DNA from: Mustelus asterias
Taxonomy: Eukaryota
Direction of reading: 5' to 3'
Length of the DNA: 64,000 bases
NCBI RefSeq assembly: GCF_964213995.1
Contig: NC_135820.1
Span: 61,628,001-61,692,000 of the forward strand
In this document: piece after piece, positions 1,702 through 63,084 of the stretch
Layout: each line of letters begins with the position of its first letter
Numbering within the stretch: position 1 is the first letter of the stretch
Program-made: the position numbers and the translations under genes
Notes under the pieces: model-generated
Told to the model about the DNA's origin: nothing
Databases searched by the model: none
The model's input: only the letters and a program-made list of their open reading frames with translations

Positions 1702-57611
<55,910 letters not shown>

Positions 57612-59075: not shown

Positions 59076-59729
59076 TTTCTCAACAACTTTCCAGTACCTG
59101 GGGTGACCATTCTCCTTGTGTCAGCCAAGGCAGGTAGGTTAATTGGGACACCACCAGGACATCATTTTTCAACACAGGTCACTGCATGACAATCAGAAAT
59201 GGGAATCTTGGGAATATATTTTAGATATATATATTAGATTGAGACTTAAGTTTTATTTTACTTAGAATAAGGAATGAGATAAGGGAAGCAGGTCTTGAAC
59301 TATTGTAAGGAGTATATTATAGAAGTAGATCATACAACCTACTCCACCATTGAATATTCAGCTTCAATTCCACTTTCCCACCAGCCCCCCATATCCCTTG
59401 ATTCCCTGACAGACCAACAATCTGTCTATTTCAGCCTTAAATACATTCAAATATATTCAATTACTTGATTTATTGCTTGGTTTATTTGGACTTTCAGAAA
59501 GCTTTCGACAAAGTCCCACATAAGAGATTGGGAAAATTCTAAAATTAAAGTGCATGGGATTGGGGGTAGTGTATTGAGATGGATAGATAACTGGTTGGCA
59601 GACAGGAAACAAAGAGTAGGAATAAATGGGTCATTTTTAGAATCGCAGTAGTGACTGGTGGGATTACACAGTAAGAAGTTTAACAACACCAGGTTAAAGT
59701 CCAACAGGTTTATTTGGTAGCAAAAGCCA

Positions 59730-59766
59730 CACAAGCTTTCGAAGCTCTAAGCCCCTTCTTCAGGTG
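59730..59766 (-). ncRNA. Minimal hammerhead ribozyme motif
   Basis: Reverse complement of 60183-60219. Confidence 0.7.
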
Positions 59767-60182
59767 AGTGGGAATTCTGTTCACAAACAGAGCTTATAAA
59801 GACACAGACTCAATTTACATGAATAATGGTTGGAATGCGAATACTTACAACTAATCAAGTCTTTAAGAAACAAAACAATGGGAGTGGAGAGAGCATCAAG
59901 ACAGGCGAAAAAGATGTGTATTGTCTCCAGACAAGACAGCCAGTGGCTGTCTTGTCTGGAGACAATACACATCTTTTTAGCCTGTCTTGATGCTCTCTCC
60001 ACTCACTGGCTGTCTTGTCTGGAGACAATACACATCTTTTTAGCCTGTCTTGATGCTCTCTCCACTCCCATTGTTTTGTTTCTTAAAGACTTGATTAGTT
60101 GTAAGTATTCGCATTCCAACCATTATTCATGTAAATTGAGTCTGTGTCTTTATAAGCTCTGTTTGTGAACAGAATTCCCACT

Positions 60183-60219
60183 CACCTGAAGAAGGGGCTT
60201 AGAGCTTCGAAAGCTTGTG
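60183..60219 (+). ncRNA. Minimal hammerhead ribozyme motif
   Basis: CAC-CTGAAGA-A-GGGGCT/TAG/AGCTTC-GAAA-GC-TT-GTG: stem I CAC:GTG, stem II with G-U pairs. Confidence 0.7.
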
Positions 60220-61167
60220 TGGCTTTTGCTACCAAATAAACCTGTTGGACTTTAACCTGGTGTTGTTAAACTTCTTACTGTGTTTACCCCAGTCCAACGC
60301 CGGCATCTCCACATGGTGGGATTACCACAGGGATCAGGACTAGAACCCCAGCTATTCACTATATATATTAATGATTTAGATGAGGGAACTAAATGTAATA
60401 TCTCCAAATTTGCACATGACACAAAGCTGGGTGGGAGGGTGAGCTGTGAAGAGGATGCAGAGATCTTTCACTGTGATTTGGACAGGCTGAGTGAGTAGAC
60501 AAATGCTTGGCTGATGCAGTATAATGTGGATAAATGTGAGGTTATCCACTTTGGTAGCAAAAACAGGAAGGTAGATTATCTGAATGGCAATAAATTAGGA
60601 GAGGGGAATGTGCAAATTGACATGGGTGCCCTCAAACACCAGTCACTGAAGGTAAGCATGCAGTAAGAAGGCAAATGGTATGTTGGTCTTCATAGCAAGA
60701 GGATTCAAGTACAAGAACAGGGATGTCTTGCTGCAATTGTATAGGGTGTTAGTGAGGCCACGTCTCGAGTATTGGGTGCAGTTCTGGTGTCCTTATCTGA
60801 GGAAGGATGTCCTTGCTCTAGAGGGAGTGCAGTGAAGGTTTACCAGGCTGATTCCTGGGATGGTAGGACTGATGTATGAGGAGAGACTGAGTCAGTTAGG
60901 ATTCTATTTGCTGGAGTTCAGAAGAACGAGAAGGGATCTCATAGAAACCTATAAAATTCTAACAGGATTAGATAGTGTGGATGCAGGATAGATATTTCCA
61001 ATGGTGGTGTAGACCAGAACCAGGGGTCATAGTGTAAGGATATGGAGTAAACCTTTTAGGACAGAGATGAGGAGAAATTTCTTCATCCAGAGTGGTCCAG
61101 AATTTGCTACCACAGAAAGTAGTTGAAGCCAAAACATTGTATATTTTCAAGAAGGTGTTGGATATAT

Positions 61168-62130: not shown

Positions 62131-62472
62131 CAGTATTCAACACAATTTTGATCCAAGTCGGAAATAACTGTGGAAATGTTTCAAAATAGCACCTGAAAAT
62201 GACAATGAGTGATTGGGAAGCTTATAAATATAGGACACCAAAAGAAGGAAAGATTAACCTGTAAGATGAGGAATTGCATGAATTATGTGAAGTAAATCCA
62301 GTAAAAAAGTAATGTACTTCTTCCAAGTTAGTCCACCATTCACTGCTCACAGTCGATAGCAAATGCAGTCTGGATGATTGTTTTGTGAACATCTCTCTTC
62401 AGTCTAAATCATTCTGTTCTAGTTCAAACTTTTCTAGTCCAAACCTCAACCTCCATCACCTAGAAGGACAAG

Positions 62473-62718
62473 TAAGAAGTCTCATAACACCAGGTTAATT
62501 TGGAATCACGAGCTTTTGGAGCAGTGCTCCTTCATCAGGTGAGTGGAGAGGTAGGTTTCACAAACACAGCATATATAGACAAAGACACAATTGCAAGATA
62601 ATGGTTGGAATGTGAGTCTTTCAGATAATCAAGTCTTTACAGACAGTGCGAGTGGAGAGAGGGATAATCATAGGTTAAAGAGCTGTGAATTGTCTCAAGC
62701 TCATGATCTCCACATCAC
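62473..62718 (-). mobile_element. Penelope-like pLTR fragment with a degenerate hammerhead (62507-62541) and inverted tail remnant ATCTCCACATCA
   Basis: Homologous to 59670-59945; TSD AGAAGGACAAG at 62462-62472 / 62719-62729. Confidence 0.72.
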
Positions 62719-63084
62719 AGAAGGACAAGGGCAGCAAATGGATGAAAACATCAGCTCCTGCGAATTTCCCCCCAGGCCACATACCATTCTGATTTGGCAC
62801 CATATTGGCACTCCTTCACTGTCGCTGGGTCAAGATCCTGAAACACCCTCCTTAACAACACTGTGGATGTAACTACACCACGTGGACTGCAGTGGTTCAA
62901 GAAAGTGGCTCACCAGCACCTTCACAAGGGCAATGAGAGATGGGCAATAATGCTGAATGAATCTAGCCAACGATGCCCATGTCCCGTGAAAGAAAAAAGA
63001 ATGTCACAGAGACTCAGATTGATTGCCACTTTAATTCTCCATCCAACTCCCACTCTCACCCAACTACTTTCCACTGTTTGAGTC

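Follow-up and report, generated by a model that had tools for sequence, protein, structure and literature searches.

The region analysed was a window of 64,000 nt of Mustelus asterias DNA, containing 0 Ns. It holds a complete L3MBTL1 gene of ~20 coding exons on the minus strand (1705-57611). Basking shark L3MBTL1 maps exon by exon on this strand down to position 1705, and residues 1-45 match the first coding exon (57483-57611, minus strand, ATG at 57611; given for context only) at 73%. MBT and C2HC domains were confirmed, with one MBT exon scoring 178.8 bits against L3MBTL1 and 173.7 bits against L3MBTL3 structures. The insert studied here lies 2,057 bp from the ATG, in agreement with the original prediction of ~2 kb upstream of the L3MBTL1 start codon. 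No CpG island was found in 50-64 kb and a candidate splice acceptor was read from the sequence ~35 nt upstream of the ATG; the insert may therefore be located within an intron of the 5'-UTR or else upstream of the promoter.

The insert interrupts a decayed CR1-type LINE RT fragment on the plus strand. The left part spans 59470-59667 (frames read by eye) and the right part 60314-61150 (RVT_1 E-value of 0.044, below the curated cut-off), the outer limits of both being approximate. The fragment is presumably CR1, a label taken from family motifs, and 11 other pieces are present in the window at 65-80% identity. The TSD had been predicted to split a CR1 RT frame; the CR1-type target was upheld, while VTG and GLPQGS were found to lie in different frames. 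CR1 stops occur on both sides of the insert, so the frame was already dead, and disruption of a working CR1 frame was ruled out.

The insert consists of 646 bp between two TSD copies (59656-60325). The left TSD (59656-59667, plus strand) and right TSD (60314-60325, plus strand) are identical at 12/12 positions and the sequence is absent elsewhere in the window (2 occurrences in total). Each arm (59666-59945 and 60004-60283) is the reverse complement of the other but for 1 mismatch in 280. Re-alignment reproduced both the 280-bp inverted arms with one mismatch and the 12-bp TSD around 646 bp that had been predicted, with position 59907 as the sole difference between the arms. The arm limits required one correction, as the left arm opens with 2 nt (59666-59667) that double as the end of the TSD; these 2 nt also match the element and are possible priming microhomology. 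Exact inverted matches in the window reached at most 241 nt, compared with 14-18 nt in 10/10 shuffles. A read fold-back artefact as the source of the arms was ruled out by the unique collinear CR1 flanks and the clean TSD.

The direct unit was numbered R1-310, corresponding to 60004-60313 with R1 at 60004. In this numbering the insert runs in the order inverted R1-278, extra R4/6-63 and direct R1-310, with the 30-32 nt tail last. The left arm (59668-59945, minus strand) is an inverted tail-less pLTR copy of R1-278 that carries the mismatch at 59907. It ends at the turn-round point CA-G-TG (59941-59945, no strand assigned), the central G of which continues the left arm on the plus strand. The extra copy of R4-63 (59944-60003, plus strand) is an inverted duplicate of the left-arm end and shows 0-1 nt of microhomology at 60003/60004. 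The right arm (60004-60281, plus strand) is a direct 5'-truncated pLTR copy of R1-278, and the PLE tail of 30-32 nt (60282-60313, plus strand; compared with PMC8557442 and PMC11167929) is at the right end only. A TATA-like word (60151-60155, plus strand) ~30 nt upstream of the hammerhead is a candidate pLTR promoter. The 3' part of the pLTR (60235-60313) contains AATAAA at R232, and the tail has a pyrimidine-rich stretch ending in CAG that resembles a splice acceptor.

A minimal type-I hammerhead motif had been predicted in each arm, and descriptor searches located both, at 60183-60219 on the plus strand and 59730-59766 on the minus strand. The strict descriptor gave 4 matches in the window (2 here and 2 in a related copy at 54.8 kb) and 0 in 50/50 shuffles. 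An opposite-strand pair is also present in that related copy (54666-54918) and so is not unique to this insert. The motifs share with the minimal hammerheads of metazoan PLEs the conserved CUGANGA / GAAA core, the extra base 9/10.1 before helix II, G10.1-C11.1 and the palindromic helix III positions 15.2-16.2 (PMC4209133). The same source describes opposite-strand pairs 100-700 bp apart in metazoan PLEs, and the cores here are separated by 423 bp. In contrast to that set helix I is just 3 bp here, and the part of the source covered does not name sharks. Membership is claimed of this published minimal class and not of an Rfam family: Rfam hammerhead families gave 0 matches at gathering score in the window, and no hammerhead was among the 28 Rfam matches at E<=10 over 59600-60400.

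Of the 5 aligned copies, 3 carry a mutated GAAA box. Across helices I and II 93% of 45 cells were paired and 2/9 pairs showed two-sided change; this was equalled by 39/500 shuffles and derives from 5 sequences only. The predicted monomer fold was marginal, with z of 0.42 or -0.09 depending on the boundary, and unconstrained cofolding of two hammerhead copies did not produce the hammerhead dimer fold. As the motifs are on opposite strands they form no tandem dimer, which the minimal class needs (PMC4209133), and a hammerhead dimer in cis was ruled out. Single minimal motifs showed no cleavage in that work. Among the top matches listed for the non-subscription literature, none described shark PLE hammerheads.

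The evidence supports the insert being a Penelope-like element (PLE) pLTR insertion with minimal hammerheads, of a known kind and ordinary for its family; architecture and ribozyme motifs both agree with the earlier PLE pLTR assignment. PLE insertions typically consist of an inverted 5'-truncated copy, a direct copy, a 30-40-nt tail at a single end and a TSD (PMC8557442, PMC3846280, PMC2377424), and palindromes at inverted junctions are abundant in PLEs (PMC3846280). The window contains 6 copies of the family including the insert, 5 of which have an inverted 5'-truncated pLTR beside a direct copy. The tail at 60282-60313 is one-sided and 30-32 nt long, and its end sequence is the same in 4/5 sisters. 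TSDs are 12 bp here, 10-13 bp in 4 sisters (by script) and ~12 bp in the fifth (by eye). All 4 strict hammerhead matches in the 64 kb fall within these copies. As the insert carries neither RT nor GIY-YIG sequence, its assignment to the PLEs is based on architecture together with the ribozyme; none of the 6 copies in the window has a coding part next to it. A 113-aa open frame across the centre returned 0/27 candidates at E<=0.01 in a protein search, and a contig collection made up of prokaryotes only contained 0 matches to a 32-nt pLTR pattern.

Comparison was made with Pen2a_Av and D. virilis Penelope as EN+ PLEs (Penelope/Poseidon, Neptune). These share the head-to-head inverted truncated copy and one-end tail (PMC3846280, PMC8557442, PMC2377424), as well as a TSD of ~8-12 bp, an inverted-junction palindrome and a TATA-like word in the pLTR. 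In the present insert the ORF is gone, and a 60-nt internal fragment makes up the extra direct piece, unlike the partial tandem of those elements, which includes the 3' end. A non-LTR retrozyme, which consists of head-to-tail tandem units each with a hammerhead (10.64898/2026.07.22.740005), was rejected, since the tandem unit here is 63 nt without a hammerhead and the two hammerheads are on opposite strands.

Four of the five sisters are inverted copies with TSDs. The copy at 54.8 kb (54651-54930, minus strand) has inverted R153-275 and direct R180-311, giving 97-bp arms with two opposite hammerheads. The copy at 56.6 kb (56603-56745, plus strand) has inverted R216-277 and direct R258-311. In the copy at 62.6 kb (62462-62729, plus strand) inverted R16-276 is accompanied by a direct part that is the tail end R302-311 only; this copy is 75% identical and a single unit aligns as far as R16. 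The copy at 26.9 kb (26665-27167, minus strand) has a short inverted part split by a SINE-like repeat and a longer direct part. The fifth sister, at 10.7 kb (10652-10776, plus strand), is direct only and tail-less, with a TSD of ~12 bp by eye. Four of the 6 copies (10.7, 26.9, 54.8 and 56.6 kb) are in L3MBTL1 introns.

The SINE-like repeat within the inverted arm of the 26.9 kb copy is ~300 bp (26818-27122) and has >20 relatives in the window. At the inversion junction of this copy (26796-26800) the microhomology is the 4-nt complementarity of hammerhead helix I, and its tail continues into an ATG, which together with the acceptor-like stretch of the tail possibly marks a PLE intron end and ORF start. 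The direct parts of 3/6 copies (10672-10678, 26796-26800 and 54791-54798) start no more than ~8 nt upstream of the hammerhead core, ~30 nt below the TATA-like word seen in the 60.1 and 62.6 kb copies, with a post-hoc chance of ~0.04. These clustered starts may reflect where pLTR transcription begins, or else a halt of the RT at helix I.

In 5/6 copies the order runs from the inverted tail-less end, which begins at the same motif 0-4 nt away from the TSD, to the tail. In 5/5 inverted copies the copying of the inverted part halts 30 nt before the tail end. In the 4 inverted copies other than the insert, the inner ends of the inverted and direct parts lie 23 nt or more apart. Only in the insert and the 26.9 kb copy, among inverted copies, is the inverted part contained in the direct part; the inverted bases absent from the direct part number 23 nt at 54.8 kb, ~42 nt at 56.6 kb and all ~230 nt at 62.6 kb, where the two parts do not overlap. 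Fold-back of a first cDNA gives only an inverted part nested in the direct part, so the 54.8, 56.6 and 62.6 kb copies are not simple fold-backs; with inverted-only sequence in 3/4 of the other inverted copies, the inverted part would not have been copied from the first cDNA. The original prediction that fold-back made the arms was not sustained by these copies, and neither was its view of the insert as a rare readable record of inverted pLTR formation, the inverted layout being the norm (5/6). As judged from the sequences, the set favours priming from both target strands (twin priming) over fold-back, unless the centres of those copies were deleted later. Priming on both strands would account for outer ends being fixed and inner ends free, and a fixed outer end is consistent with RT starting at a defined site.

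The Poseidon protein of Anolis (PAc) cuts and extends both strands, with two RT start sites that bracket the tail (PMC11167929) and match the two outer ends here. The start sites of PAc are used without strand bias in vitro, whereas exactly one tail is present in 5/5 inverted copies here. The main text of PMC11167929 draws no link from both-strand priming to inverted pLTRs and leaves the junctions of inverted products undescribed. Arkhipova et al. attribute the palindromes at junctions to self-priming, with an antisense strand as template (PMC3846280). L1 twin priming likewise produces two separately primed, opposite cDNAs within one TSD, but the L1 cDNAs overlap little, with a median of 12 bp when overlapping (PMC12016303). 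PLE cDNAs would start 30 nt apart and so give long inverted repeats, unlike L1. Among the top matches listed for the non-subscription literature, no description of twin priming in PLEs was found.

The best explanation, which we hold with moderate confidence, is a young, non-coding, 5'-truncated PLE insertion, its arms near-identical, made by twin priming, with a centre formed by a turn of the left strand and end-joining. From the anatomy, the strand that carries the centre base and the sister architecture, which were observed directly, we infer the twin priming, the order of the steps and the enzyme. Cuts by the PLE protein in the two target strands, offset by 12 bp, would leave 3' ends that each prime cDNA on PLE RNA. 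The top strand would start at the tail-less site and yield the left arm, the bottom strand would start at the tail end and yield the right arm and tail, and both cDNAs would stop at ~R1. Against this, both cDNAs must end within ~3 nt, unlike in the other 4 inverted copies, and a later deletion across the palindrome centre could make inverted parts seem longer than direct parts. One mismatch over 2 x 280 sites, at a rate of 7e-10 per generation (PMC10587355), gave an arm age of 2.6 million generations; the range of 0.06-14 million is too wide to use, and the estimate no longer holds should the mismatch stem from a copying error or the arms convert each other. An imperfect small hairpin, R8-29 (60011-60032), adjoins the end of both arms, and the inverted part of the 62.6 kb copy ends near R16; the zone of this hairpin is a possible RT stop region.

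At the centre, 59944-60003 equals 60007-60066 at 60/60 positions and the reverse complement of 59883-59942 at 59/60, as had been predicted for a spacer that is both a direct and an inverted copy. The second palindrome was confirmed with its centre at 59943, but the proposed 1-nt loop was not, as the hairpin folds with a 3-nt loop. Base 59943 on the plus strand is G and continues the left arm. The mismatch is private to the left arm, with spacer and right arm in agreement there, and the spacer is joined to the right-arm tip with 0-1 nt of homology, giving a run length of 58-60 nt. If the turn was tight, the G at 59943 points to the left-arm strand as the one that made it. The left-arm 3' end (..CA-G-TG) would have primed on antisense DNA, either itself via a 3-nt loop or the other cDNA via 4 pairs around a G.G mismatch. 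The turned strand would then have run 58-60 nt and detached, and end-joining with 0-1 nt of microhomology would have linked it to the right cDNA's tip; either the RT or a host repair enzyme could have served as polymerase. A turn in cis needs a later mutation for the left-arm-private mismatch and one in trans does not, which suits priming on the other cDNA better. Because the arms mirror each other, such an inverted duplication reads as a 63-bp tandem duplication.

Products of this kind arise by host repair in other systems. In yeast, fold-back inverted duplications of 2 to ~150 bp involve Pol delta and NHEJ capture (PMC11724301); Drosophila SD-MMEJ includes snap-back and trans priming, with a TG/CA primer pair among those used (PMC5728401); and the ends of L1 insertions can carry inverted duplications that use 2-bp homology (10.1101/2024.12.14.628481). 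All share with the present centre a 3' end on tiny inverted microhomology, a run of tens of bases and joining on 0-5 nt (PMC11724301, PMC5728401, 10.1101/2024.12.14.628481). The end here differs in being a PLE cDNA that faces its mirror image, so that the product looks like a tandem duplication. Among the top matches listed for the non-subscription literature, none described such a PLE centre. Two successive events had been proposed for the centre; two polymerase switches or joins are indeed needed, while the fold-back origin of the arms was not retained. A turn followed by end-joining, as in host break repair, would make the scar a record of the joining of the halves and not of inverted-pLTR formation. 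The centre is considered a single-locus junction scar whose authorship, by RT or host repair, is uncertain.

A more specific form of twin priming, suggested by the six copies only and in our view possible though doubtful, has an RT dimer priming both target strands on a single RNA; the top literature matches listed contained no such proposal. The dimer would grip the RNA at both start sites, each protomer priming one target strand. The trailing protomer would displace the tail-less cDNA, both cDNAs would run off the shared RNA 5' end, and the freed tail-less cDNA would snap back before joining. If true, this would account for the single tail (5/5), the common R1 end, the turn of the left arm and the longer inverted parts (3/4 others), and inverted pLTRs would be products of twin priming and not of self-priming.

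The main rival explanation places the revision of the centre after insertion. A perfect ~555-bp palindrome centred at 59943 would later have extruded as a cruciform, been cut, opened unequally at its hairpin caps (60 nt from the tip on the left and 2 nt on the right) and been ligated; taken as a whole, this is unlikely. It needs no coincidence for a right arm that starts at the centre with CAC, and long palindromes without a spacer are the most unstable. Revisions at palindrome centres usually delete sequence and seldom add it, which counts against this route. Cruciform cutting, Artemis hairpin opening and NHEJ have been described (PMC7999016), but the right end needs a 5' overhang, the difference of 1/280 between the arms requires both events to be recent, and the 61-bp palindrome that remains (-74.5 kcal/mol as a DNA hairpin) indicates a product that is not fully stabilised. 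The sequence is also reproduced by a double switch of a single cDNA, a one-cDNA version of the originally proposed model, in which the bottom cDNA reaches R1, slips back 63 nt on the RNA, re-copies to R4, folds back and copies its first pass. PLE self-priming and template jumps have been proposed (PMC3846280), the left-arm-private mismatch fits the last-copied arm, and the 26.9 kb copy is compatible with fold-back in its longer direct part and 4-nt helix I junction homology. This route is nevertheless quite improbable: it requires a 58-nt loop held on 2 bp and, among 14 TGs of the antisense arm, has to land on the single one situated at the first junction; it offers no reason for the stop 30 nt before the tail end in 5/5 inverted copies, and it cannot yield the 54.8, 56.6 and 62.6 kb copies without later deletions.

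The agreement of spacer and right arm at 60/60 would also follow if the centre had been inherited, either as a 63-bp tandem repeat in a master or through re-retrotransposition of a parent locus as a whole. We regard inheritance as very unlikely: both junctions still have to coincide with the repeat boundary, and the 62.6 kb copy shows a single unit to R16, a weak objection because that copy ends before the boundary. Least probable is a real insertion with a 63-bp duplication introduced in error by the assembly or consensus, at a hairpin that is hard to sequence. Tandem and inverted PLE structures are known to trouble assemblies (PMC8557442), but the window is without Ns, the left arm carries a private base, 4 sisters have matching outer architecture, and for the arms the unique CR1 flanks and clean TSD exclude read fold-back.

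A transcript across the insert was predicted to form dsRNA of -554.6 kcal/mol (z of -57), which substantiates the dsRNA-forming potential originally predicted. Whichever strand is read, the hammerhead-sense arm follows its complement in the transcript, so that read-through RNA would bury this arm in a 280-bp duplex. Such RNA, if transcribed, is a potential ADAR or Dicer substrate. The predicted DNA hairpins were -352 kcal/mol for the long one and -74.5 kcal/mol for the 61-bp unspaced one. At inverted Alus in eukaryotic cells a 52-bp spacer abolished fork stalling (PMC7999016), which would make the short palindrome the likelier cruciform seed. A miRNA gene was rejected at a best score of 54 bits against a threshold of 135, the sub-threshold matches reflecting a generic hairpin. 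The insert is most likely inert, and there is no evidence for an effect on L3MBTL1.

The locus itself is minor, being one more truncated inverted PLE insertion in a dead LINE fragment. Its value is as a data point: the formation of tandem and inverted PLE structures has been called undefined (PMC8557442), and the six copies in the window bear on fold-back versus twin priming. At 6 copies per 64 kb, the shark genome is suggested to hold very many such copies. An unrelated palindrome at 46218-46280, whose 31-bp arms have one mismatch and flank a 1-nt centre, is the only other tight palindrome with arms of at least 14 bp in the window.
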